Shown here: positions 5,180 to 57,042 of the stretch, one piece after another
How the letters are laid out: every line of letters starts with the position of its first letter
Numbering within the stretch: position 1 is the first letter of the stretch
Virus record (IMG/VR): IMGVR_UViG_3300025093_000018
Location: 16,991 to 80,990 of that record
Strand: one strand, 5' to 3'
Origin: a virus
DNA length: 64,000 nt
Position numbers and translations under genes: made by a program
The notes under the pieces: generated by a model
Told to the model about the DNA's origin: nothing
Database searches by the model: none
The model's input: only the letters and a program-made list of their open reading frames with translations

Positions 5180-5868
5180 TAAAAGATAAATTTATAATAG
5201 TAAGTAGCTGGTGCTATTGTATTTATACTGCAATATATTTTTCTATTGTTACCAGCATCTACAATAACATTAAATTGACTAGTAATATCTAGACCTGCTC
5301 CATCCTCAATAGCCGTAACAGTACCATAAGAATCCGGTACAACAAACACTACCCTAGCTGTTACTGCAGCAACTAAACTAAATATATTAATAATAGTCGC
5401 TTTATCTGTCACAGTTAAAGCAGCTTCTAAAGGCGCTGTTAAATCTCCAGGAACAGTAATATTATCTCCAGGACCTGATAATTGGCCGTACTTAAACGCA
5501 GCAGTAACCACAACAGTTATAGACTCAATAAAACTTTGTGGATCTCCATTTGAATCTGTATAATATACAGTTAAATAGTAATTATATGTACCAGGTGAAG
5601 ATGGTATACTACCTCCGGTTAATGTTGTAGATGGTGTTAAATTAGTTCCTGTAGCTATAGGAGTTGGTGTTACACCTTCATTAATTGCCCAACTATCTAC
5701 AGTACCATCATTTTGTGTAATAGTTCCGGATAAAACGATACTACCAGGTAATGAAGTATCTACGTATGTATCTGGTGTAGCTGTAAATGTTGAGGTAGGC
5801 GGAGTGTACCCAGGTATTCCTGAGAACATATAATCTGCCATATTTTTAAATTGTTTTCCGCTTATCAT
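5179..5868 (-). CDS. Ig-like virion structural protein
   Basis: T/S/G-rich beta protein; similar layout to 7357-8061 (KYG/YYG...VFVVP/LYVAIP). Confidence 0.5.
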   Translation of the reverse strand: MISGKQFKNMADYMFSGIPGYTPPTSTFTATPDTYVDTSLPGSIVLSGTITQNDGTVDSWAINEGVTPTPIATGTNLTPSTTLTGGSIPSSPGTYNYYLTVYYTDSNGDPQSFIESITVVVTAAFKYGQLSGPGDNITVPGDLTAPLEAALTVTDKATIINIFSLVAAVTARVVFVVPDSYGTVTAIEDGAGLDITSQFNVIVDAGNNRKIYCSINTIAPATYYYKFIF

Positions 5869-15900: not shown

Positions 15901-17664
15901 TTATCTCTTTATAGTAGCAATCTTATTTAAATCTAAAGAGCCTTGTTTTTTTAATGCTTTCTTATAAGTCTTTTCAGATTTCTTAGCCCTTTTTTCTTTA
16001 TCTTTCTGAGACTTTTTATAATCTTTGTCATTCTTTTTAGTAACCGAATTATCCTTTACTACAAAACCTTTTTGACCTTTTCTAAGTAAAACCCCACCAC
16101 CTTTGTGAGATTTACCACCGCAGTTATAGCTAGCTGTTTTACTATCTGCTTTTCTTTCAGCTTTTCTTTTAGCTTTATTTAAAACACGTAATTCTTTTTT
16201 ATATAGTTCCTCTAATGAACCATCTCCACCACCTTGTTTCTTTCTTTTATTCTTACGTTTTTTAGATTGTTTAGTAAGCCACTTACCATAAGTTTCACTT
16301 ACTACCCCATCGTAACCCTCAACTTTAGTAGTTAACTTACCACCTTTCTGTGATTTTTTAAGTAAAACCCCACCTCTTTTATGTTTTCTAGCAGGCGCTT
16401 GAGATCCAGTAGTTAATCTATAACCAAAGTTTAAATCTCTAATATTTGTCTGAGGTGTATAACCTTGCTGTTCAGCTTCTTTACTTCCGTAATATTGTTT
16501 TTCTTTAAACCCCGCTCTTCTTCTATAAGCATTTTTCCACTCTAGATTTTTATAAAAATTTTCTAAGTCTTCTGCTGGTATCATTCTTTGACCTGCTTGT
16601 TTGTGGTCTTCCGGATAAACAGCATTAGGGTCGATTGTTTGGTTTATATCCATAGTATTAGGATCTATGCCATATTTCTTCTGAACCCCTTGTCTAAATT
16701 TAATTATCTCTTGATTTCTTCTATTTCTTTCTGCCATTATAGCTGCATTAGCTTTGGCTTTACTATCTAATTGAGTAGGTCTGTTTGGATCATAGGCTGG
16801 CTGCCATTCGCTTAAACCTTGATATTGTTTAGGATCTACTTCACCTGGAGTTAAAACAGCTGTATTTGTTCTTTGTACACCGTTTACTGCCTTAGGTGTA
16901 ATCTGGTAAGTATTTACAGAGTCTACTTTATTACCGGTTTGGTATTTTAGTAATCTACCTCCATTTCTATAATTTGTCATATTATTTTCCTTAATTTTAA
17001 TTCCTTGTGCTTGAGCTATATTTTGTGGTGTGCCCCAAGTAGAGGCAAATGCTCTTGGGTTTTCTTTAACCTGTTGAACTATCTCTTTACTACTTAAACC
17101 ATCTGTACCATATTTCTTAGCGTACATTTTGGCCATATTATAGTTGGAAGCTTCCCAATGTTCTTTTCCTGTATCCTTACCTTGTCTTCTTTGGTATAGT
17201 TGACCATCCTCATATTTAAATCCAGGTGTAAACCCTCTAGCACTATCTGATTGTCTCTGTGCAGCTATAGCATCAGCTTTTCTTTTAGCAGCTAATTCAT
17301 CAGTAGCTTTTCTATCAAATATCCAGTCTGCCTTTGTAGCATCTGCATCATACGAGTATACTTCTCCCATATCTCTAGCTACATCTTGAAAGAATTGTTC
17401 TCCTCCTTCTCTTCCTGTAGACCCCGGTAAACTTTTATAGTAATCTACAATACCTTGTTGTTTTGTATTACCTCGGGATGCTGCTGCTACATAATTTGGG
17501 TCACTTATATACTTTTCATATCCAGATTTATCCCAAACTGCAGGTTTAACCACTTTATTTGGTTGTGCTTTATAATTTGGAGCAGAAGCAGCTCTAGTAG
17601 CTATAATATTATCTCCTTTAGCGGCTATTAATTTATTACCTCCTTGATATTTTAATATTCCCAT
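15901..17664 (-). CDS. Highly basic putative capsid-internal/cargo protein with KYQxG(G) repeats
   Basis: MGILKYQGG, LLKYQTG, KRGGVLLKKSQKGG, KGGGVLLRKGQKG; Lys-rich C-terminus. Confidence 0.45.
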   Translation of the reverse strand: MGILKYQGGNKLIAAKGDNIIATRAASAPNYKAQPNKVVKPAVWDKSGYEKYISDPNYVAAASRGNTKQQGIVDYYKSLPGSTGREGGEQFFQDVARDMGEVYSYDADATKADWIFDRKATDELAAKRKADAIAAQRQSDSARGFTPGFKYEDGQLYQRRQGKDTGKEHWEASNYNMAKMYAKKYGTDGLSSKEIVQQVKENPRAFASTWGTPQNIAQAQGIKIKENNMTNYRNGGRLLKYQTGNKVDSVNTYQITPKAVNGVQRTNTAVLTPGEVDPKQYQGLSEWQPAYDPNRPTQLDSKAKANAAIMAERNRRNQEIIKFRQGVQKKYGIDPNTMDINQTIDPNAVYPEDHKQAGQRMIPAEDLENFYKNLEWKNAYRRRAGFKEKQYYGSKEAEQQGYTPQTNIRDLNFGYRLTTGSQAPARKHKRGGVLLKKSQKGGKLTTKVEGYDGVVSETYGKWLTKQSKKRKNKRKKQGGGDGSLEELYKKELRVLNKAKRKAERKADSKTASYNCGGKSHKGGGVLLRKGQKGFVVKDNSVTKKNDKDYKKSQKDKEKRAKKSEKTYKKALKKQGSLDLNKIATIKR

Positions 17665-30876: not shown

Positions 30877-31478
30877 TACTCTTCATCATCCCTAAACACG
30901 CCACGTTCTATCATAGAACTTCCCTTATCTCCTCTAACTCTACCAACATTTTCTACTTTCTTAGCTGTTTCCTTGGCTTTTAACATACCAACTGCTAGTA
31001 CTTCTAATTGTTTTACAAATCCAGCAATAGCTCTCTCATTAGTAACAACCTTATCTAGTTGACCGTCTTCATCATGAACAATCTCTATAAAGGGTTCTGT
31101 TTTATTTAATAAAGCACTGATTTCATCAATTTTCTTTTGTTGTACCATAGCAGATCTTTCTAACGCATCCTCATTAAAGTAGTTGTATGCGTCCATAGCA
31201 GCATCTATAAGACTCTGTTCTTTATTAGTGAATGATGTTTTATTGATAGGACCTAGAGCTCTGACCATGGCTTGTCTAGGTTTTTCGCGGTAGTCTACAT
31301 CTTTCATAGGATTGCTGTTTGTAAGATCACAACAATAAAATACGTATAATAACATACGCATGCCTAGCTCTTCTTTGTTCTTTTTACTAGCGTATTCAAG
31401 GATATTAGTAAATTCCTCAATCATAGCTAATTTAGGATCAATAGCTAGTTTACCACCAAGTAGTGTAAACGATATCAT
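30876..31478 (-). CDS. Putative terminase small subunit
   Basis: Helical 200-aa protein coupled to TerL, ending GRVRGDK. Confidence 0.5.
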   Translation of the reverse strand: MISFTLLGGKLAIDPKLAMIEEFTNILEYASKKNKEELGMRMLLYVFYCCDLTNSNPMKDVDYREKPRQAMVRALGPINKTSFTNKEQSLIDAAMDAYNYFNEDALERSAMVQQKKIDEISALLNKTEPFIEIVHDEDGQLDKVVTNERAIAGFVKQLEVLAVGMLKAKETAKKVENVGRVRGDKGSSMIERGVFRDDEE

Positions 31479-31501
31479 ATTCTTCTTATTATCTTATATT
31501 A

Positions 31502-31720
31502 TTATTTCGAATGTACTAAATCTTTAGTATTAAAGATCTGTTCTTGATATTCTCCTTTATTTGTAAACCAAAAACATAAAACACCCATTAGCTGAGGTTT
31601 ATTAGTCTTCTCATCTTTCATTCGACTTTTCTTGATCTCTTTAACGATCATTTGAGGTCTAAACATAATTTCCTGTTTCAACTCTACAACTTCTCCAGGA
31701 ACAAAATATACCATACTCAT
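31502..31720 (-). CDS. YodC/DUF2158-like small protein
   Basis: PGEVVELK...PQMIV...VLCFWF..G.YQEQIF pattern. Confidence 0.6.
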   Translation of the reverse strand: MSMVYFVPGEVVELKQEIMFRPQMIVKEIKKSRMKDEKTNKPQLMGVLCFWFTNKGEYQEQIFNTKDLVHSK

Positions 31721-31824
31721 AACTTATTAACATTAAAATTTATATTACTTTAATATAAGAAAGTTTTTAATAAGGTCAATGGGATTCGCGATTCGCGTAT
31801 TGCATATCGTGATATGGAATATTG

Positions 31825-31897
31825 TTACCCCGCTAGGACTCGAACCCAGATCTGCGGGGCCGTAACCCACTGTTTTATCCAATTAAACTACAAGGCA
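31825..31897 (-). tRNA. tRNA-Arg(ACG)
   Basis: Cloverleaf; anticodon arm GTGGG-TTACGGC-CCCGC; T-loop TTCGAGT. Confidence 0.85.
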
Positions 31898-31903
31898 ATA
31901 TAG

Positions 31904-31974
31904 AGCACCTGGTAGGATTCGAACCTACGTCTGAGGTTTTGCAGACCCCTGCCTAGCCACTCGGCCACAGGTGC
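31904..31974 (-). tRNA. tRNA-Cys(GCA)
   Basis: Acceptor GCACCTG/CAGGTGC; anticodon loop CTGCAAA; U73. Confidence 0.92.
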
Positions 31975-31978
31975 GTAG

Positions 31979-32049
31979 CACGACAGGAAGGATTCGAACC
32001 TTCATGATACGGTTTTGGAGACCGATCAGCACAACCTACGCTCTGAAGT
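31979..32049 (-). tRNA. tRNA-Trp(CCA), two acceptor-stem mismatches
   Basis: Anticodon loop CTCCAAA; T-arm GAAGG/CCTTC; acceptor ACTTCAG/CTGTCGT. Confidence 0.7.
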
Positions 32050-32054
32050 AAATA

Positions 32055-32111
32055 TTGTTATTTATATCCGATTAGTAAGGTTATAAGTGACTAACCAGAT
32101 ATAAATAACAA
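32055..32111. repeat. About 22-bp inverted repeat spacer between tRNA-Leu and tRNA-Trp
   Basis: TTGTTATTTATATCCGATTAGT ... ACTAACCAGATATAAATAACAA; pairs fully with G-U on the minus-strand RNA. Confidence 0.8.
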
Positions 32112-32117
32112 GTTTTG

Positions 32118-32200
32118 TAGCCGGGGCGGGAATCGAACCCGCACGTCCTAGGGACAACGGATTTTAAGTCCGTCGCGTCTACCTGTTCCGCCACCCGGCC
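32118..32200 (-). tRNA. tRNA-Leu(TAA)
   Basis: Anticodon arm ACGGA-CTTAAAA-TCCGT; long variable arm. Confidence 0.92.
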
Positions 32201-32262
32201 ATAGATTATATTTGTTTCATTACCATTCACGTACAGTGAACAGGGACTTTTATTGAACATTG

Positions 32263-32343
32263 TAGCTTCGGTGGGATTCGAACCCACAAACCTCTTGCTT
32301 CTAAGGCAAGGTACTCTTCCATTCGTCTTTACGGCACGAAGCT
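32263..32343 (-). tRNA. tRNA-Leu(TAG), atypical
   Basis: Acceptor AGCTTCG/CGAAGCT; CTTGC-CTTAGAA-GCAAG; short variable loop and enlarged D region. Confidence 0.8.
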
Positions 32344-32348
32344 ATTTG

Positions 32349-32424
32349 TAGCCCTAGAGAGGATCGAACTCTCTTTTCCGCAGTGAAAACGCGACGTCCT
32401 AACCAACAATTAGACGATAGGGCC
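32349..32424 (-). tRNA. tRNA-Glu(TTC)
   Basis: Acceptor GGCCCTA/TAGGGCT; anticodon loop TTTTCAC. Confidence 0.88.
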
Positions 32425-32431
32425 ATAAAAC

Positions 32432-32460
32432 AAAAAACCCCGGTGGTTACCGAGGTTCTT
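32432..32460 (-). terminator. Attenuator terminator of tRNA array 1
   Basis: AAGAACCTCGGT-AACC-ACCGGGGTTTTTT ending about 7 nt before tRNA-Glu. Confidence 0.85.
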
Positions 32461-32500
32461 TAGTGTTTAACTTTAAAACTTTAAATTATGTCAATCAAAT

Positions 32501-32587
32501 TCAAATATCTTTAGCGCATACACCAGAACCTCCGTTGGATTCTTCCAACAGCCATAAACAAAGTTCTAATGTGCGTAATGTTTTCAT
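32501..32587 (-). CDS. Attenuator leader peptide 1, MKTLRTLELCLWLLEESNGGSGVCAKDI
   Basis: Codons 4-16 are L/R/E/C/W in 12 of 13 positions, matching the downstream tRNAs; contains antiterminator ACGGAGGTTCT. Confidence 0.8.
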   Translation of the reverse strand: MKTLRTLELCLWLLEESNGGSGVCAKDI

Positions 32588-32591
32588 ATTG

Positions 32592-32599
32592 CAAATTTA
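32592..32599 (-). promoter_or_regulatory. Bacteroidota -7 promoter TAAATTTG (array 1)
   Basis: TAnnTTTG 4 nt before the leader ATG, implying a near-leaderless transcript. Confidence 0.7.
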
Positions 32600-32626
32600 A
32601 TAATAAAATTTAAAAGTAAAATGGGG

Positions 32627-33073
32627 TTAATCGTAAACTCGAACTTCTATAGTGTGATTTTTATAAAACTCGTTATTTACATAAGTTCCAGCAGAGTTAA
32701 CCATTTCATAATAAATAGTATTTACATCTTCCCAATACGCTAATACGTGACTATTACCATTTTGTGCTGTATTATTATGAAAAACTGCAGTTTTACCTTC
32801 TGTAAATACTCCAGCTAAGGTCATATAATAACCACCTGGGTACCCAGCATAACTCCAAACAGGTGTTCCTCCTAAAGTATTTTCTAATACAGTAGCATCA
32901 GGAGCACTAGTACCTGATTGTGTTAATGTTGCTGTATATACTCTATAGGGTCTTACAGTCTTATTGGCTAAAGCTATAAGTTCCTCTCTAAGTCTATTAA
33001 TATCTTTTACATCTTTACCAGTATGTTGTATATTGGCTTTGATAGAATCTGTAGTATCAGATACTTGTCCCAT
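32627..33073 (-). CDS. Virion-associated protein with VYTATLTQSGTSAP domain
   Basis: YRVYTATLTQSGTSAP..VLENTLG...IEVRVY module recalled from Bacteroidota phage fibre C-termini. Confidence 0.55.
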   Translation of the reverse strand: MGQVSDTTDSIKANIQHTGKDVKDINRLREELIALANKTVRPYRVYTATLTQSGTSAPDATVLENTLGGTPVWSYAGYPGGYYMTLAGVFTEGKTAVFHNNTAQNGNSHVLAYWEDVNTIYYEMVNSAGTYVNNEFYKNHTIEVRVYD

Positions 33074-33099
33074 AATTGATTATTTTTAATTAAATTTTA

Positions 33100-33534
33100 T
33101 TAACTCTTAACTGACCAATCAATTACCATTGCAGCGTCTAATGCGTTAGAAGCGTGAGCATTAAAGATCTTAATAGTAAGGGTATCATCTGTAGGCTCTA
33201 CTTTAGAGATTACAGGCATTCCAGCTCCTGTATAACTAGAGATTACAGCTGTAACAATTGAACCTGTAGTTAGTAAAGTATTAGAAATAGTTAATACAGT
33301 TGCTTCTGTAAGAGCAGCAGTTGATAACGCAGCAGTAGTAGATTTACCAACTGAGTTATTTAATGTAGGTGTTGCACCTGTTGTTGTGTTGTCTGAAGCT
33401 TCACCTGTTAAGTAGTTAGCTACATCAGTCATGAAGTTTCTAAGGGTCGTAGTAAAATCTTTTCTATCTGAATTGTATTGTAAGTCAGCTAAGATTCTAG
33501 TTTTAAGACCCGCGGATCCTGTAATAGTTGCCAT
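33100..33534 (-). CDS. Putative head decoration/fibre protein
   Basis: Ala/Thr-rich beta protein. Confidence 0.45.
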   Translation of the reverse strand: MATITGSAGLKTRILADLQYNSDRKDFTTTLRNFMTDVANYLTGEASDNTTTGATPTLNNSVGKSTTAALSTAALTEATVLTISNTLLTTGSIVTAVISSYTGAGMPVISKVEPTDDTLTIKIFNAHASNALDAAMVIDWSVKS

Positions 33535-33635
33535 AATTTTTTATTTAAAATATTAATTAATATTGTTTATACGACTAAAGAATACAAAAATTTATCGTAA
33601 ATACAAGGTTAATTACAAACTATTTAATTTAAGTA

Positions 33636-35900
33636 TTATTTATAAGGTAATAGATTACTCTTTTTTACTGAGTTTGTTTTAAATTCTGGTAATGTATAAG
33701 CATTTCCAGTCTTTAAATAATCTTGTAACTGGGTAAACTTCTCTTTAATCTTGGTATCTTTTAAATATACTTCTCTAGCTTTAGGCCAATATCTAGCCTT
33801 TTCAAACTCTTCTTCAGTTCCTTCAAACATTAATCCCCTGATCTGTCCATCTATCCAATTCTCTTTAAACTGCTCTTTACCATCTCCCTCTCCATAATCT
33901 TCCTTAGACATTTCCCAATCACGCTCAAAATCTCCTTTATGTTTTTCCAAGAAAGCATCCTCAAATTCTTTTCTATGTTTTTTGTACACTTTATCACTAG
34001 TCATACCATGCATCATATCTAACATGATAGACTGCTCGTTGTTAGTTTTAGGGTCATAGACTATACCATGAGTACCAGGTTTAGGGTGATCATATGAATA
34101 TCCACTATAATAAGTTACTTTTTCTCGTCCTTCTTTAGGACTGAAATACTCTATACTACCAACACCAGTCTTATCTCTTGTGAACTCTGGGTCAGATTTT
34201 ATAGTAACTTCACCCATGTTTTTAAATGCTGGATATTTATTATAGATGTTATCAAGCATTACCCCACCTTGTTGATACTTCAATAACACTCCTCCATTCC
34301 TTTTTGATTGTATTGATACAGCTCCAGATACTCCCACCAAAGGTGTTGTAGTGTAAACAGCATTTAAAAACTGTTTTAGGTCTTTTTTATCTAAATTCAC
34401 TACTAAATTAGTAATATCATTTGGTAAATCTCCTCCTATTCTACTGCTAGATTTTAATTGATCAATGGCTGCATCAGATATATCCCCACCACTCCATAAG
34501 CCCTTTTCTTTTAGATAGGATAGAGCTCTAACACCTCTAACTTGTTGTTCTGGTTTTTTATTTAAATATTCTATTGTACGAATAACTTGTGGATTATCAG
34601 ATTGTTGTCGTATAGTTTTAAAAGGTATCCCTTTCATACTATAGTCAATATTATACGTATTTGAGGCGTGTATAAATTCATGGTTAGCTATATTACTTAA
34701 CTCCTTATTATTAACGTTTTTATCTATACCTAACCAAACATGCGGGTTTTCATCTATAGTAGAAGAAAATCCTAACTGTCTAGTATCTACCCCGGTCATA
34801 TCTTTATACGTAACTTCAGTTTTATTTAACTTATGTAAAGCTATTGCTCTAGCTCTCTTAGCATCAGCCTTACTTTCTTTGGCTACAGACATTCTACGTT
34901 TTAACCATTCATCTGATTTTAACCAATTTTCTTGTTCTTTAAATGCTTTTTGTACTACCTCCAAATTCTTCTTACTTGGTATCACAGTAGGTGTGTTTAA
35001 TAAATCTTTCTTTTTATATAATTGCTTATTTATAATATGTTGTTGTTTATCTTTTGGAGACTTTTTAACTATTTCCCAAAACTCTCTATCTTTTGATGTT
35101 AATAATTTAATTTTATCATTTGATAATTTTAATATATCATCAACTGACTTAATATTATTAGTATTTGTATTTAAAGCGTCATATACATTTTTTACACTAC
35201 CATCCTGATTATAATGTATAGTTCTCTTTGTATCTATCTTTGCTTTACCTTCTGGGGATAAAAAAGAATTAAATATTTCCTCTTCTTTACTATAAATCGG
35301 TTTCTTTTTAGATAAATAAGGTTCTAATTTAGGGTCAAGAGTTGTTTTATTTAGTTTAGGATATATAACTGTTCCTTTATATACTTTAGGTGAAGGGGAT
35401 TTTCTTAGTAATCCTAAACCACTCTTACTTACAGGTTTAACATACTTACCAAGTTTAAGAGTATGCGCTGCTGCACCTATTTCTGGGGCTACAGCAATTA
35501 CATCTAAAGCTTGATCAACACCTTCCCAATAAGGGCTCTTAGTGATAGGATTTACATAAGACATTTGAGCGTACATAGCTGAACCTGGGTTTGCGTACAT
35601 AGTTAAATCTGCGGCAGTCTTCGCGGTACCTTTTGCTGTCCCTACAGGGTCATCTATAATTCTTGTCATAGAATTAAACGGTGTTATATCACCTAAAAAA
35701 TTCATAACACTATGACCTATTTGATCTAATTCTTCAGTTGTAGACTTAGATTTAACTGTAAATTCTGATAAATCAGGTGCCTGATAAACATCTGTTTTAG
35801 GGTTATACTTAGTTACGGTACCTTTTTTATAAGCTTTTTTATAATCAGAAGTTCCGTATTTAATCCCGCCACCTTTTTGGTATTTTAATAATATACCCAT
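33636..35900 (-). CDS. Multidomain protein with zincin HExxH motif and KYQxGG motifs (putative virion cargo)
   Basis: NHEFIHA...PEQQVR; MGILLKYQKGGG and GGVLLKYQQGG. Confidence 0.55.
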   Translation of the reverse strand: MGILLKYQKGGGIKYGTSDYKKAYKKGTVTKYNPKTDVYQAPDLSEFTVKSKSTTEELDQIGHSVMNFLGDITPFNSMTRIIDDPVGTAKGTAKTAADLTMYANPGSAMYAQMSYVNPITKSPYWEGVDQALDVIAVAPEIGAAAHTLKLGKYVKPVSKSGLGLLRKSPSPKVYKGTVIYPKLNKTTLDPKLEPYLSKKKPIYSKEEEIFNSFLSPEGKAKIDTKRTIHYNQDGSVKNVYDALNTNTNNIKSVDDILKLSNDKIKLLTSKDREFWEIVKKSPKDKQQHIINKQLYKKKDLLNTPTVIPSKKNLEVVQKAFKEQENWLKSDEWLKRRMSVAKESKADAKRARAIALHKLNKTEVTYKDMTGVDTRQLGFSSTIDENPHVWLGIDKNVNNKELSNIANHEFIHASNTYNIDYSMKGIPFKTIRQQSDNPQVIRTIEYLNKKPEQQVRGVRALSYLKEKGLWSGGDISDAAIDQLKSSSRIGGDLPNDITNLVVNLDKKDLKQFLNAVYTTTPLVGVSGAVSIQSKRNGGVLLKYQQGGVMLDNIYNKYPAFKNMGEVTIKSDPEFTRDKTGVGSIEYFSPKEGREKVTYYSGYSYDHPKPGTHGIVYDPKTNNEQSIMLDMMHGMTSDKVYKKHRKEFEDAFLEKHKGDFERDWEMSKEDYGEGDGKEQFKENWIDGQIRGLMFEGTEEEFEKARYWPKAREVYLKDTKIKEKFTQLQDYLKTGNAYTLPEFKTNSVKKSNLLPYK

Positions 35901-35938
35901 ATCTAGGTAATGTACAAAAAATTATTAAAAATATAAAG

Positions 35939-36012
35939 TACTCCCGGTAGGATTCGAACCTGGAACCGTCCCCTTAGAAGGGGGATGCTCTATCCAGTTG
36001 AGCTACGGGGCC
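35939..36012 (-). tRNA. tRNA-Arg(TCT), apparently chimeric 3' end
   Basis: Canonical D and anticodon arms (TCCCC-CTTCTAA-GGGGA); T-stem CCAGG/CCTAC and acceptor GGCCCCG/CGGGAGT each carry two mismatches. Confidence 0.7.
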
Positions 36013-36016
36013 AAAT

Positions 36017-36049
36017 AAAAAAGCCCCGGAACTTTGTAGTCCGAGGCTT
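36017..36049 (-). terminator. Attenuator terminator of tRNA locus 2
   Basis: AAGCCTCGGA-loop-TCCGGGGCTTTTTT just before tRNA-Arg. Confidence 0.85.
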
Positions 36050-36074
36050 CCTGTTATATATGAATTATTCTTAC

Positions 36075-36167
36075 TTACATATTTACAAATACAGATAGCC
36101 GCGGACTCCGTCTCGAATCGACAGTTCCGTTACTCTTAATGCCTGTATTTATAATTATTGCTTGCAT
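36075..36167 (-). CDS. Attenuator leader peptide 2, MQAIIINTGIKSNGTVDSRRSPRLSVFVNM
   Basis: Preceded by promoter-like TATATTG; contains AGTCCGCGGCT complementary (10/11) to terminator 5' arm AGCCTCGGACT. Confidence 0.75.
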   Translation of the reverse strand: MQAIIINTGIKSNGTVDSRRSPRLSVFVNM

Positions 36168-36199
36168 GTTGATTGCAATATAAATATTAAATTTTAAAC

Positions 36200-36799
36200 C
36201 TAAAAGGTCTTAGAATAATTTTTTAGCTTTTCTTTATCAGAACTTGAAAATTTAGATGAGTAGGTTAGGTTACCTTCTTCGCTCATTATATAATCCTCTG
36301 TACCACTATGGTATAAACCAAATAGATGTCCAAACTCATGTATAATAACCCTTGAACAATCCTTATTCGAATCCTGAAGACTGAGATCTACAAGGGCTAC
36401 AGCCTTTAAAGTACCTATACAGTTAGTATGAGCTGCTCCTATAACATCTTCGTCACTTCTACCTGTAATATACAAACTTATATCGGCCCAATTATTAGTT
36501 AACCTTTTAATAGAGGCTATTACAGAAAGATACGGGTTATAATCACTACCTCCATATGTAAAGGTAGAAATTTTAAAGTGGATGCCTACTTGAGCATATA
36601 CATTATTAACGTGGATCATAATCTCTTTAAGATCACTATAAGTTTTACTGGATGTGGTATCTACAAAGATATTTACGTTATAATGTTGGGTAGCTACTAA
36701 CTCCTGCGCATTAGATTTCAACACAGGATCAATTTTATATTGCCCTAGTAATGTAAAGCTGCAAACAAATAAGGCTAAAAATAATAAAAGTTTTTTCAT
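36200..36799 (-). CDS. Secreted metzincin (M12/reprolysin-like) zinc metalloprotease
   Basis: Signal peptide; HEFGHLFGLYH; Met-turn YIMS. Confidence 0.85.
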   Translation of the reverse strand: MKKLLLFLALFVCSFTLLGQYKIDPVLKSNAQELVATQHYNVNIFVDTTSSKTYSDLKEIMIHVNNVYAQVGIHFKISTFTYGGSDYNPYLSVIASIKRLTNNWADISLYITGRSDEDVIGAAHTNCIGTLKAVALVDLSLQDSNKDCSRVIIHEFGHLFGLYHSGTEDYIMSEEGNLTYSSKFSSSDKEKLKNYSKTF

Positions 36800-36869
36800 A
36801 ATTTAAATCATATTTACATTCTCATAGTACTAAGGTAACACTTTTTATTTGAATAAAAAAGTGTAATTG

Positions 36870-36940
36870 TTACCAGGAGAGGATTCGAACCTCTACCTTC
36901 TGGACCAAAACCAGACGTCCTGCCATTAGACCACCCGGCA
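36870..36940 (-). tRNA. tRNA-Gln(TTG)
   Basis: TCTGG-TTTTGGT-CCAGA; U1-A72 acceptor. Confidence 0.9.
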
Positions 36941-36946
36941 ATTTTG

Positions 36947-37019
36947 TGGACGAGGGCGGATTCGAACCACCGACGCTAGGCTCTTCAGGCCCACGCTCTA
37001 CCAACTGAGCTACTCGTCC
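36947..37019 (-). tRNA. tRNA-Phe(GAA)
   Basis: GGACGAG/CTCGTCC; anticodon loop CTGAAGA. Confidence 0.92.
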
Positions 37020-37025
37020 AGTTTA

Positions 37026-37114
37026 GGGTGTACGATGGGATTCGAACCCATGACGTGTCACTAACCGTACCGGGACCACAACCCAGCGCCTTCGACCGCT
37101 TGGCTACGCACACC
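37026..37114 (-). tRNA. tRNA-His(GTG) with unusually long variable region
   Basis: G-1/C73; CTGGG-TTGTGGT-CCCGG; about 18-nt variable region. Confidence 0.85.
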
Positions 37115-37120
37115 ATGTAG

Positions 37121-37202
37121 TGGGACCGGGAGGACTCGAACCTCCAAGCCGTTAGGACCCGGGTTACAACCGGGGACGCTACCAATTACGCTCTACGTTC
37201 CC
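37121..37202 (-). tRNA. tRNA-Tyr(GTA)
   Basis: CCCGG-TTGTAAC-CCGGG; long variable arm. Confidence 0.87.
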
Positions 37203-37318
37203 ATATTATATACGATCACATATAATCCCCGATATATCAGGTAATTTTATAATATTATACCCGCTATAGCATGGTTTTATATGTTTTACATATATTATAC
37301 CCTAATAGGTATAATTTG

Positions 37319-37392
37319 TGGAGCTACCGGGATTCGAACCCGGAACCTCTTCCGTGCAAAGGAAGCGCTCTTCCAGTTAGAGCTACAGCCCC
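37319..37392 (-). tRNA. tRNA-Ala(TGC)
   Basis: GGGGCTG/TAGCTCC with G3-U70; anticodon loop TTTGCAC. Confidence 0.93.
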
Positions 37393-37397
37393 ATATG

Positions 37398-37471
37398 TAG
37401 CGGGGGCGAGATTCGAACTCGCGTCCTTCGGGTTATGAGCCCGACGTCCTAGACCCCTAGACCACCCCGCT
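37398..37471 (-). tRNA. tRNA-Met(CAT), initiator-like anticodon stem
   Basis: TCGGG-CTCATAA-CCCGA with three G-C pairs. Confidence 0.88.
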
Positions 37472-37474
37472 AAG

Positions 37475-37547
37475 TCGAGTGAGCTGGATTCGAACCAGCG
37501 AATTCGTGCTCCCAAAGCACGCCCGTATAGCCTCTGCGTACCACTCG
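37475..37547 (-). tRNA. tRNA-Pro(TGG)
   Basis: CGAGTGG/TCACTCG; CGTGC-TTTGGGA-GCACG. Confidence 0.85.
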
Positions 37548-37556
37548 ATATAATAC

Positions 37557-37587
37557 AAAAAGCCCGAACTCTTTAAGAATCCGGGCT
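37557..37587 (-). terminator. Attenuator terminator of tRNA array 3
   Basis: AGCCCGGATTCT-TAA-AGAGTTCGGGCTTTTT ending about 10 nt before tRNA-Pro. Confidence 0.85.
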
Positions 37588-37614
37588 AATCAGCTTAGTA
37601 TATGTATGATCACA

Positions 37615-37692
37615 TTATAACACACTAATATCACCCAGAGAGCTAAAGGCCATCGGCTGAAAATAAAATGCGTTATGTTGTGTTTTTCTCAT
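37615..37692 (-). CDS. Attenuator leader peptide 3, MRKTQHNAFYFQPMAFSSLGDISVL
   Basis: Codons 5-16 are Q/H/A/F/Y/P/M in 11 of 12 positions, exactly the seven downstream tRNA specificities. Confidence 0.82.
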   Translation of the reverse strand: MRKTQHNAFYFQPMAFSSLGDISVL

Positions 37693-37725
37693 TGAAGTTA
37701 TTTCTTCGTTTTGTTTATCGTACTG

Positions 37726-37733
37726 CAAATATA
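37726..37733 (-). promoter_or_regulatory. Bacteroidota -7 promoter TATATTTG (array 3)
   Basis: Exact TAnnTTTG upstream of leader 3. Confidence 0.7.
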
Positions 37734-37772
37734 AATATATGTTTTTAATCTACAAGGTACTAAATAAAAATT

Positions 37773-38504
37773 TTAAATATCTGTTACATCAGGTAATGCT
37801 TTATATGTCTTCAATTCTTCTTCAGCCTTTAATCTAAGCTGTCTCTCCTTCAACCCCATAGATTTCCATTTGGCCTCACTTTGTACAGCTCTAGAGTACT
37901 CGTATTCGGCTTCATCTATTACTACAGCATAGATATTTATTGTGTCTTCATCAGATACATGGCCTAACGATTTAAGCTTTTTAGCTAAATCATTTAAAGC
38001 TTTATTTGTAAAACCACAGGGCTTGACTCTGTTACTTTTTGCATCATTAAATTCTATCTCCTTGCCTGTTTTTACCGTATAGATGTATAGTTGTCCTATC
38101 ATTAACTTCTCTTCCCAGGTAAGATTCTTTGAATTAAGAAAAGCACTGGGGATCTTCATCACATCTCTATAACTACTGCTTACTCTATACTTGCCATTAG
38201 ATATCTTCCCAAGGACACCGAGTTCTTCAAGATCTTTAAAAGCTCTTTTGATCGTACTAAGTGATGCTCCAGTAATTTCCGCTATCTCAGACCTATTAGG
38301 CAATGTTAAGGTATTTGATCTCGAATCATAAACACCTATTGTTTTAAGTATGGCTAGTACCATTAATTGTTTTGGATAATTAATAAAACCATCAGGTAAT
38401 GTTACATACCCTCCGGTTCTTAATGTGGCTTTCATACCACCAACCCCTTTAAAGGTTACAGGACTTCCGTCGTCCTTTAGTGCATTAAACTTCTTCATTT
38501 CCAT
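37773..38504 (-). CDS. Winged-HTH DNA-binding protein, RepL-like replication initiator candidate
   Basis: RSEIAEITGASLSTIKRAFKDLEELGVL..GKYRV wHTH plus a second HTH-like segment; TATATTTG immediately upstream; adjacent direct repeats. Confidence 0.6.
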   Translation of the reverse strand: MEMKKFNALKDDGSPVTFKGVGGMKATLRTGGYVTLPDGFINYPKQLMVLAILKTIGVYDSRSNTLTLPNRSEIAEITGASLSTIKRAFKDLEELGVLGKISNGKYRVSSSYRDVMKIPSAFLNSKNLTWEEKLMIGQLYIYTVKTGKEIEFNDAKSNRVKPCGFTNKALNDLAKKLKSLGHVSDEDTINIYAVVIDEAEYEYSRAVQSEAKWKSMGLKERQLRLKAEEELKTYKALPDVTDI

Positions 38505-38550
38505 AATGCAAATATAAGGAAAATTAATGAATTAAAAAAGGTTCATTTTA

Positions 38551-38775
38551 AAAAGGGTCAGATTTCCTCACCCGTCTTTAAAGGGCTAGAGAGCTTTTAG
38601 TAGTTTTAGTATGGTTCATTTAGGTGTTTTTCGGTAGTTTTTCGGTAAAATTTCGGAAAAAGGGTCAGATTTCCCCCAAAAAGGGTCAGATTTCCTCAAT
38701 GATTTTTGGTAAAATTTTTGGGGTTAAATAGTTGAAAATAAAAACGTTAAAAAGAAAAAGGGTCAGATTTCCTCA
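38551..38775. repeat. Four direct repeats AAAAGGGTCAGATTTCC(TCA), iteron-like
   Basis: Copies at 38551, 38658, 38679 and 38756, plus TTTCGG and GGTTCATTT sub-repeats. Confidence 0.85.
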
Positions 38776-38808
38776 TCTTTTTAACGCTATTATATATTAA
38801 GGATTATT

Positions 38809-39132
38809 TTATTTTGAAGTACTACAAGTAACCCAAAACGGTTGATCAAGTGGTCTATATGTCCAATCAGGTCTACTTAGAATAGGGCCATGGATTGGGC
38901 ACCAGGTTGAGTTCCACCAACCGCATGTACATGTTTGGGAAATATATGGTACTGGAGATGTTACCGGAGGTACGTAAACTTCCTCCTCTACCTCCTCATG
39001 TTTGTCCGTAGATTTGTCGGAAAACTTTGCTAATTTATCTTTAATCTTTTGTACTTGTTCTTCATTTAAGGTCTTAGCTCCTGATATATCAAAGAAACCA
39101 TTTAACCAGATTATAAATTCTTCGTGTGTCAT
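38809..39132 (-). CDS. Hypothetical protein
   Basis: MT.EEFIIWLNGFFDIS...L.EEQV.KIKD.L, a common small phage protein pattern. Confidence 0.6.
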   Translation of the reverse strand: MTHEEFIIWLNGFFDISGAKTLNEEQVQKIKDKLAKFSDKSTDKHEEVEEEVYVPPVTSPVPYISQTCTCGWWNSTWCPIHGPILSRPDWTYRPLDQPFWVTCSTSK

Positions 39133-56106: not shown

Positions 56107-56283
56107 AGATAAACGTTTCGGTAGATTTAGCCGCTTAACGTGGGTGTTGTAGTTTATACCTGTGAAGAGAACCCAAAAACTACAGTCGTCATATACTAAA
56201 ATATGTCCGATAATAAATCAAAGAGAGGGGATTGGCCTTATATTCCCCTCTTTCTTTAAAAAACATTTATTATATTAAAAACT

Positions 56284-56600
56284 TAATTACTGTTAGGCTT
56301 TTATACTTAACTGTTTGGACGAGGGTTCGAATCCCTCCGACTCCACAACGCATCAGTTAGCGAAGGTAGAAAACGCTTGCGTAAACCTACCTAAAAAATT
56401 GGCAGAGTACCCGGAGATACTTGTACACTAAATGGTTGAAATAACCACTGCCAACAATATGGGGTCGTTTTTGGTTTTGACAGCAGAAGACGAGGTATTA
56501 GATAGGTAATTATAATCTCTTAAACGGAGAATTTGATATGGAGCACAATCCATTTATTGTGCAAGAAGAAGCAGTTGCTGAGAAATTGGCAGCCTAATCT
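56284..56600 (+). ncRNA. ssrA: Circularly permuted (two-piece) tmRNA
   Basis: 3' piece first (GAC-GAGGG-TTCGAAT-CCCTC-CGACTCC-A, ending 56345). 5' piece GGGGTCG...TTTTGAC starts at 56461. Acceptor stem has G3-U70. Tag frame 56526-56597 reads GEFDMEHNPFIVQEEAVAEKLAA*. Confidence 0.85.
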
Positions 56601-56604
56601 CATT

Positions 56605-56640
56605 AGTCCCGGTGAAGTATAGTACCCGGGACTTCTTATT
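56605..56640 (+). terminator. Hairpin/terminator closing the tmRNA coding piece
   Basis: AGTCCCGG...CCGGGACT followed by TCTTATT. Confidence 0.55.
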
Positions 56641-56655
56641 GAACTAAAATGAAAT

Positions 56656-57042
56656 ATGGAAAGAGATATTCTAATCAAAAAAATTACAGAAGGTAACCCA
56701 GATAAAACTACAATACTTACTTGGATAAGATCTTTACCTAATTACAATAAATTAAAACCATCTACTTATAAAAAAGGAGATATATTGATGCATCCAATAT
56801 TTGCGCATCCTTATATACTTATTGAATATCATGAAGATAGAGGTTGGATTTGTTGTATGTTAACAAGTAAAGAAGAATGCGATGAAGTATTAGTTAAATG
56901 TAATTCAAGGTTTTTACCTGATTCTTATGTAACTAAAATGTTATTTACAATTAATGAGCCTGTTGGATCTTATATGGGGCCTTATGAAAATAATACTCAA
57001 TTAAATTCTATTATTAGAAAATTAAAGAAAATATTTAAATAA
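56656..57042 (+). CDS. Hypothetical protein (possible SH3/PemK-like fold)
   Basis: KKGDIL...HPYILI...CCMLTS. Confidence 0.45.
   Translation: MERDILIKKITEGNPDKTTILTWIRSLPNYNKLKPSTYKKGDILMHPIFAHPYILIEYHEDRGWICCMLTSKEECDEVLVKCNSRFLPDSYVTKMLFTINEPVGSYMGPYENNTQLNSIIRKLKKIFK

Follow-up and report, generated by a model that had tools for sequence, protein, structure and literature searches.

A candidate multivalent leader-peptide attenuator in front of a phage tRNA array

Introduction

Why phages carry tRNA genes is debated, and both codon-usage compensation and escape from host tRNA-cleaving defences have been proposed. A locus of a marine phage, contained in the IMG/VR virus record IMGVR_UViG_3300025093_000018, raises the question of how the transcription of such genes might be controlled. 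In the 64,000-nucleotide (nt) stretch that we analyzed (positions 16,991 to 80,990 of the 81-kb record, hereafter the window), a short open reading frame (ORF) and an intrinsic terminator stand directly in front of seven tRNA genes. Is this leader an ordinary terminator, an RNA or peptide with a function of its own, or a sensor that decides whether the tRNAs are made? We conclude, with a probability of about 0.72, that the locus is a multivalent leader-peptide (ribosome-mediated) transcription attenuator gating the tRNA genes. All coordinates are positions in the window, and the parts of the leader, the terminator and the array lie on the minus strand, as do the genes below about 40 kb. The phage has two other tRNA loci, and the leader and array in question are therefore called leader 3 and array 3.

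Results

The leader codons match the downstream tRNAs

ARAGORN called twelve RNA genes in the window, seven of which form array 3 (36869-37547, minus strand) in the order Pro-TGG, Met-CAT, Ala-TGC, a 115-nt A+T-rich gap, Tyr-GTA, His-GTG, Phe-GAA and Gln-TTG. The Rfam tRNA model placed all seven above its cut-off, with Tyr as a marginal case (30.6 versus 29 bits). The leader ORF upstream of them, MRKTQHNAFYFQPMAFSSLGDISVL (37615-37692), has 25 codons plus a stop, with the ATG at 37692 and the TAA at 37617-37615. We compared its codons with the array and found that, in the run formed by codons 5-16, QHNAFYFQPMAF (Q H N A F Y F Q P M A F; 37645-37680), 11 of the 12 codons are cognate to the downstream tRNAs. 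All seven specificities are covered, and Asn is the only non-cognate residue.

The match was evaluated against 463 ATG-initiated ORFs of 15-60 amino acids (aa), taken from the six frames of the 81-kb genome so that the control keeps the A+T bias of this genome. As a result, the leader alone reached 11 of 12, the runners-up scoring 10 and 9, and it alone covered all seven specificities, with a runner-up at six. The seven residues together have a background frequency of 0.259 in 50 long ORFs, which gives a binomial P(≥11/12) of 3.3e-6, and 14 of the 77,520 possible sets of seven amino acids do no worse than the real one in fitting the leader. Thus, the claims of an earlier, sequence-only reading of this DNA that the leader covers all seven tRNA specificities and that a chance match is unlikely were both borne out, and in the enrichment test against the phage background which that reading had proposed, the leader topped the same-genome ORFs.

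The position of the leader is also that expected of a regulatory element. In minus-strand order, the stop codon of an upstream gene (37775-37773) is followed by the promoter box TATATTTG, an A-rich 5' region, the leader ORF, a 27-nt spacer, the terminator and tRNA-Pro. The upstream gene (37773-38504) encodes a 243-aa RepL-like winged-helix protein (Pfam RepL, E = 1.9e-5). A TTG at 37753-37755, found by eye and lying at about -33 as computed from the -7 box, is taken to be the -33 element on the basis of a spacing rule for Bacteroidota promoters that we assume to apply. The -7 box TATATTTG itself (37726-37733) fits the Bacteroidota sigma-A consensus TAnnTTTG; according to PMC9723704, TAnnTTTG at -12 to -5 is the flavobacterial sigma-A consensus, and Shine-Dalgarno sequences are missing in flavobacteria. 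From the -7 box and this consensus position, a transcription start is predicted near 37721.

The terminator is a hairpin at 37561-37587 with 12 pairs, six of them G-C, and a 3-nt loop (-17.9 kcal/mol), and its stem adjoins the U-tract TTTTT (37556-37560). Its 5' arm (37576-37587) holds the sequence GCCCGGA (37586-37580). Only 13 nt separate the stem from tRNA-Pro, and because this gap is too small for a separate promoter, transcripts must cross the terminator to reach the array.

The leader is conserved in related phages

Scans with the large terminase (PHROG 6681) yielded 52 related loci (L002-L053), of which eight have tRNAs and three a homologue of leader 3. When two peptide-level DNA patterns of the leader-3 core were scanned against IMG/VR, they matched three contigs, which are those behind the same three loci: L021 (MNTIQHNAFYFHPMAFSFRKEFDV), L043 (MNLFQHNAFYPQPMAFSCLGNLVM) and L040 (MKNLLHNAFYYQQMAFSYPGDLDVL). 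In all three of these viral matches, which adjoin tRNAs without exception, the motif lies in an ORF of 24-25 codons, between a -7 box and a terminator, with the tRNAs downstream. A further pattern match, on a Shimia contig (L057), was discarded as chance, being antisense inside a 250-aa ORF with no tRNA within 8 kb.

Counting the window, the -7 box is kept in three of the four homologues and carries one mismatch in L021. The ORF stays open in all three relatives, and the single indel is of 3 nt and in frame. The N- and C-terminal thirds of the peptide vary; the cognate-codon core and the pairing strands described below are conserved. Across the three relatives, eight codons of the stretch 5-17 differ from the window, and seven of these changes are either synonymous (GCA>GCC, CAG>CAA and TTT>TTC) or replace one cognate codon by another (Phe>Pro, Gln>His, Phe>Tyr and Pro>Gln). 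The one non-cognate change is Gln>Leu in L040, a leader that has also lost Pro at codon 13 and gained it at codon 19.

Other searches for relatives gave little. Neither the RepL-like 243-aa protein nor a 199-aa metallopeptidase homologue located between arrays 3 and 2 retrieved relatives in IMG/VR, and a 754-aa protein retrieved one locus, without tRNAs. Megablast of 31000-39000 against GenBank phages gave no match, and no cultured relative was found there; tblastn of the RepL-like protein against the same phages gave one weak Vibrio-phage match, and distant blastn of 35900-37800 returned tRNA genes only. A tRNA search of the whole records behind L042, L040, L023 and L041 detected no further arrays.

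The leader RNA has alternative folds

The leader RNA, of 169 nt, has a folding energy of -46 kcal/mol (z = -4.37), which none of 200 shuffles matched. In the minimum free energy (MFE) fold, ATAACGCATT (37676-37667), which comprises the His-Asn-Ala-Phe codons, pairs with AGTGTGTTAT (37626-37617), which finishes at the leader stop codon. This helix, designated P1, has 10 pairs including two G-U, forms the base of the anti-antiterminator, and was recovered in both MFE folds and RNAalifold. Inside the P1 apex, the strand TCTGGGT of codons 18-20 (37639-37633) is buried by TCA.CCGA of codons 11-14. Folding and duplex energy show that the same strand can instead pair with GCCCGGA in the terminator 5' arm, through seven pairs of which two are G-U (-11.2 kcal/mol), to form an antiterminator. 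In the window, the domain energies are similar: -19.0 kcal/mol for P1, -17.7 for the antiterminator domain and -17.9 for the terminator. The sequence-only reading had described the 10-bp P1 helix and a weaker, G-U-rich TCTGGGT:GCCCGGA antiterminator, and both were reproduced; of its second helix, the burial of TCTGGGT stands, and the proposed register with TATTTTCAG gives way to the TCA.CCGA partner.

The P1 hairpin and the terminator are common to all four homologues. An antiterminator is also found at the same place in the ORF in each of them, at codons 18-24, with duplex energies of -5.9 kcal/mol in L021 (reached by 29 of 2000 shuffles), -15.1 in L043 (9 of 2000), where it is the strongest of the four, and -12.8 in L040 (31 of 2000). 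In L021, the altered terminator arm is matched by a different upstream strand. RNAalifold of the four sequences gave 23 consensus pairs, three of them with compensatory changes, all in the terminator. It kept seven pairs of the P1 5' strand (37676-37667), with no two-sided change; such invariant pairs neither support nor contradict P1. If P1 does form, its pairing would explain why the core retains a conserved non-cognate Asn.

In the folding model, ribosome position selects between the folds of loop-ended transcripts

We then modeled the translating ribosome by masking 30 nt around each A-site codon, and folded the transcript in two states, either complete or ending in the terminator loop, before the 3' arm, as a kinetic proxy. 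The folds serve as thermodynamic proxies, and the outcome is in part a direct consequence of which strand lies under the mask. Of the two states, the loop-ended one is what matters kinetically. In this state, the median antiterminator pair probability of the window was 0.01 when no ribosome was placed; it rose to 0.82-1.00 for A-site positions at codons 2-14 and was 0.00 for those at codons 15-25. L021 and L040 resembled the window in the loop-ended folds. The predicted productive stall region, codons 5-14, includes all seven specificities.

From the parts of the locus, their conservation, the codon match and the alternative pairings, we infer the following course of translation, stalling, readthrough and feedback. 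Transcription would begin at the TAnnTTTG promoter near 37721 and enter the 25-codon leader. Fast reading of codons 5-14 (Gln, His, Asn, Ala, Phe, Tyr, Phe, Gln, Pro, Met) would let the ribosomes leave this region, upon which the end of the ORF would pair with the His-Asn-Ala-Phe codons and thereby form P1. With TCTGGGT buried in its apex, the terminator would fold, and RNA polymerase would stop 13 nt before tRNA-Pro. When matching charged tRNAs are scarce, slow decoding of any of these codons would leave a ribosome sitting on the 5' half of P1, and the free TCTGGGT would capture the terminator 5' arm while the 3' arm is still to be transcribed, allowing transcription to continue into the seven tRNA genes. 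The new tRNAs would speed leader translation and switch the array off again, thus closing a negative feedback.

The other two tRNA arrays have leaders of the same layout

A leader ORF followed by a terminator also precedes the two other tRNA loci of this phage. Leader 1, MKTLRTLELCLWLLEESNGGSGVCAKDI (32500-32586, minus strand), tops the genome ORFs for the set L, E, W, C and R with 11 of 12, the next ORF scoring 9. Leader 2, MQAIIINTGIKSNGTVDSRRSPRLSVFVNM (36075-36167, minus strand), reaches 12 of 12 with the array-2 set. With the sets of arrays not their own, the leaders score low; for leader 3, the best-12 scores were 11 for its own set, 7 for that of array 2 and 2 for that of array 1.

The array-2 locus of the window (35938-36183, minus strand) has a leader listing I, N, T, G, K, S, V, D and R, and only tRNA-Arg-TCT follows it. 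In the relative L004 (407-1790), eleven tRNAs (Arg, Lys, Met, Gly, Asp, Asn, Ser, Ser, Thr, Ile and Val) stand behind a homologous leader 2, and the comparison of the two loci makes it seem that the window has lost most of array 2. Protein ORFs are inserted after the tRNA-Arg of array 2 in L021 and L043. In its full form, that is, the L004 arrays together with array 3, the system of three arrays covers all 20 amino acids.

The pairing scheme recurs as well. In all 10 leader-1 and leader-2 cassettes, from the window, L004, L021, L043, L023 and L007, the 5' arm of the terminator has a pairing partner in the 3' part of the ORF, with duplexes of -10.7 to -19.1 kcal/mol that were reached by 0 to 15 of 1000 shuffles. 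In the folding calculations, the antiterminators of leaders 1 and 2 are stronger and the predicted switch is clearer than in leader 3. The conserved S-G-G-S of leader 1 is the strand that pairs with the terminator 5' arm. Within the leader-1 family, L021 lacks both an Arg tRNA after Cys and Arg in the leader, and in L007, for which no Cys tRNA was called, Leu replaces the core Cys. The proposal of the sequence-only reading that leader 3 is an attenuator sensing several amino acids is thus supported by three homologous cassettes, by the core substitutions, by alternative pairings in four of four homologues and by the same layout at the other arrays.

Array 1 (minus strand) holds three tRNA-like genes that ARAGORN did not call. 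The one at 32349-32424 scores 49 bits with the Rfam tRNA model and has, by eye, the anticodon loop TTC (Glu); that at 31979-32049 scores 25 bits, below the cut-off, and shows CCA (Trp) by eye; and that at 32260-32345, called by neither ARAGORN nor Rfam, resembles the Leu-TAG tRNA of L004. Judged by these sequences, they may be degenerate or unusual tRNAs.

Evidence against attenuation and alternative explanations

Several observations weigh against attenuation, and the most direct of them come from the complete transcript. In its equilibrium folds, the terminator won at every ribosome position for the window, L021 and L040, with P(terminator) at least 0.96 throughout in the window, and L043 was the only one of the four homologues to switch. 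The sequence-only reading had named an antiterminator too weak to compete in folding as the outcome that would refute it; the antiterminator is indeed that weak in these complete-transcript folds, and is not in the loop-ended ones. Even in the loop-ended folds, the antiterminator still formed with a ribosome at the stop codon, at a probability of 0.40 for the window and of 0.89 for L040, and in L043 it formed without any ribosome (0.99). The dominance of the terminator at equilibrium would suit a plain terminator that ends an operon or acts as an insulator, or else a hairpin for 5' processing, placed after the RepL-like gene, with constitutive leak-through making the tRNAs and with an untranslated ORF whose composition is coincidental or an A+T by-product. 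Indeed, no terminator lies between the upstream stop codon (37775-37773) and the leader, so that upstream readthrough also meets this hairpin. However, such an explanation is very unlikely, since it must dismiss an ORF that is unique in a control including the A+T bias, whose frame and length are conserved in three of three relatives with an in-frame indel, and which has a conserved promoter box directly upstream; it also needs the same coincidence at all three arrays and in the relatives.

Other points concern what exactly is conserved. Over codons 5-17, 33 of the 39 core nucleotides are invariant though the terminase proteins are only 62-69% identical, and this could reflect a constraint at the RNA level rather than at the codon level. 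The TTT>CCC change of L043 also converts U-G to C-G pairs with GGG. The L040 leader retains all seven amino acids in front of an array that consists of an odd Ala-anticodon tRNA-like element and tRNA-Gln, and because it keeps the full leader after losing most tRNAs, the leader does not track array content tightly. P1 lacks covariation support, with a two-sided change in none of its 12 pairs in the four sequences, and these four are the only related sequences, so that statistics drawn from them are not independent. The invariant core, the RNA that folds far better than its shuffles and the persistence of the element in L040 would fit a structured small RNA, or a micropeptide gene, that serves a function of its own, ends at its own terminator and stands next to tRNAs by accident. 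We nevertheless consider this highly improbable. A cmscan of 31000-38600 found no Rfam family over the leader (37553-37735) at E ≤ 1, giving only weak chance-level matches in the leader regions. Rather than the whole peptide, only the cognate core and the pairing strands are conserved, and the substitutions are mostly synonymous or cognate-for-cognate, including the three-base Phe to Pro swap. Furthermore, the element adjoins tRNAs in all three of its IMG/VR occurrences, and it would be left unexplained why three unrelated leaders each list the amino acids of their own array.

The remaining points touch the sensitivity and output of the proposed attenuator. The TCTGGGT:GCCCGGA duplex is modest, its energy being reached by 96 of 2000 dinucleotide shuffles (about 5%). 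Classical attenuator leaders use runs of regulatory codons, and here His, Tyr, Pro and Met have one codon each; in the leader-1 family, L023 retains Arg codons without an Arg tRNA. It could therefore be argued that leader translation is sensed with another output, such as Rho access, RNase cleavage or RNase P processing, or for another signal, such as general translation capacity, amino-acid starvation or a late-gene timer. The weak antiterminator of the window speaks for this, as does the presence of just one codon each for four of the seven residues, which would imply low sensitivity to any one tRNA; amino-acid starvation would cause the same stall via a shortage of charged tRNA, and the arrays lie just upstream of packaging and structural genes. 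Against it stand the canonical terminator with a U-tract in four of four homologues, with its three compensatory pairs, and the overlap of the antiterminator with the terminator 5' arm in all four leader-3 and all 10 leader-1 and leader-2 cassettes. In addition, the amino acids are partitioned among three leaders that match three arrays, which argues for set-specific sensing. We thus regard a different output or signal as unlikely, and retain attenuation of the tRNA genes as the best explanation.

Neighboring features

In L043, about 55 nt (385-439) lie between the terminator and tRNA-Pro, and a -7 box with a single mismatch to the consensus can be made out there by eye; judged by this sequence, a constitutive promoter downstream of the attenuator may also be present in L043. 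The tRNA-His of the window (37026-37113, minus strand) has 88 nt, and that of L043 has 87 nt, which is unusually long for a tRNA-His. The gap between tRNA-Ala and tRNA-Tyr in the window (37203-37317) corresponds to about 700-830 in L043 and about 5955-6035 in L040, where an odd tRNA-like element with a TGC anticodon is found. By eye, the L040 element has an encoded CCA end, and in L043 the segment 743-819 gives a weak match to the Rfam tmRNA model (20 bits).

Just upstream of the RepL-like gene, at 38521-38775, there are four copies of a repeat of about 20 nt and a second, 15-nt repeat, which resemble replication-origin iterons or else operator sites. The 199-aa protein between arrays 3 and 2 (36200-36799, minus strand) matches zinc-metallopeptidase families (Reprolysin_3, E = 4.3e-7; Peptidase_M10, E = 5.6e-6), and by eye its hydrophobic N-terminus resembles a signal peptide; in L040 and L041, a homologue is encoded directly ahead of tRNA-Arg-TCT. 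ARAGORN also detected a permuted tmRNA at 56253-56688 on the plus strand, with the tag GEFDMEHNPFIVQEEAVAEKLAA, a second translation-rescue element of the phage.

Discussion

The proposed element has close counterparts among the multivalent attenuators of enterobacteria, where the thr leader holds Thr and Ile codons and the ilvGMEDA leader holds Ile, Val and Leu codons. As in these systems, a promoter is followed by a short leader ORF rich in several regulatory codons and by an intrinsic terminator, and ribosome position would select among mutually exclusive anti-antiterminator, antiterminator and terminator helices. In contrast to thr and ilvGMEDA, which serve biosynthetic enzymes, the phage attenuator would control tRNA genes, and its leader samples seven amino acids, four of them by a single codon. 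It also differs in belonging to a phage of Bacteroidota, with a TAnnTTTG promoter, no Shine-Dalgarno sequence and no match to an Rfam leader family. In the pheST operon of E. coli, a leader-peptide attenuator controls phenylalanyl-tRNA synthetase, so that there, too, a component of the translation apparatus is controlled by slow decoding of its cognate codons. Whereas pheST provides a synthetase for one amino acid, the phage product is the tRNA set itself, which would feed back directly on the sensor.

T-box riboswitches likewise attenuate transcription in response to tRNA status and have translation-related targets, a likeness that holds insofar as our proposal is right. However, the T-box binds uncharged tRNA directly and needs no translation, while the phage leader is coding and too short for a T-box; in agreement, cmscan found no T-box match in 31000-38600 at E ≤ 1. 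Within the phylum, a further counterpart is leader-peptide attenuation in Flavobacteriia, with which the Bacteroid-trp motif reported by Weinberg in 2010 is associated. PMC9723704 reports signs of leader-peptide attenuation at flavobacterial amino-acid operons, and there attenuation by short leader peptides is likely at amino-acid biosynthesis operons with the same phylum-level expression signals as ours. Unlike the leaders of these host amino-acid operons (PMC9723704), the phage leader would control tRNA genes.

Among published accessory tRNA arrays with conditional expression, the nearest that we found is the trn operon of Anabaena sp. PCC 7120, a long array described as induced under translational stress (PMC8421152, PMC10272220). 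Like array 3 in our proposal, it is off by default and on when translation is impaired. The means differ: the trn operon is controlled at its promoter, where direct repeats are bound by the repressor TrcR (PMC8421152, PMC10272220), and the phage would use a cis-acting leader ORF and terminator. The strings "attenuat-", "leader" and "terminator" do not occur in the text of PMC8421152. Full-text literature searches did not find leader-peptide attenuation of tRNA genes, although supplementary tables, such as Table S7 of PMC9723704, may hold lists of leaders.

A possible analogue in a cultured phage, which is suggestive only, comes from the sequence of Caulobacter phage CcrBL10 (L058, NC_048045.1). 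At 5220-5374, an ORF of 31 aa in which V, I, Q and R abound precedes a terminator of 15 pairs, and a block of Val, Ile, Ile, Val, Gln, Gln, Ile, Arg and Arg tRNAs lies about 230 nt farther downstream. This ORF tops 63 small ORFs at 9 of 12, and four others reach 8.

Taken together, the three attenuators of this phage clade might constitute an on-demand replacement system for the whole decoding set, each switched separately by its own codon set, a proposal that we put forward only tentatively. If it is true, the phage would detect and repair the loss of host tRNAs, whether through cleavage by anticodon nucleases or through decay upon host shutoff, and the block organization of phage tRNA sets would be explained. 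Together with cases of the CcrBL10 type, it would amount to a general, so far undescribed rule of phage tRNA regulation.

If leader 3 is indeed an attenuator, the locus would provide direct evidence that a phage measures the supply of tRNA and responds to it. Attenuation of the trp and his type would then extend from enzymes to tRNA genes, with direct feedback of the product on the sensor. It would also become possible to predict, from the sequence, which tRNAs a phage expects to run short of, and the composition of a leader would be a record of the past content of its array, as for array 2 of the window, where most of the tRNAs have apparently been lost.

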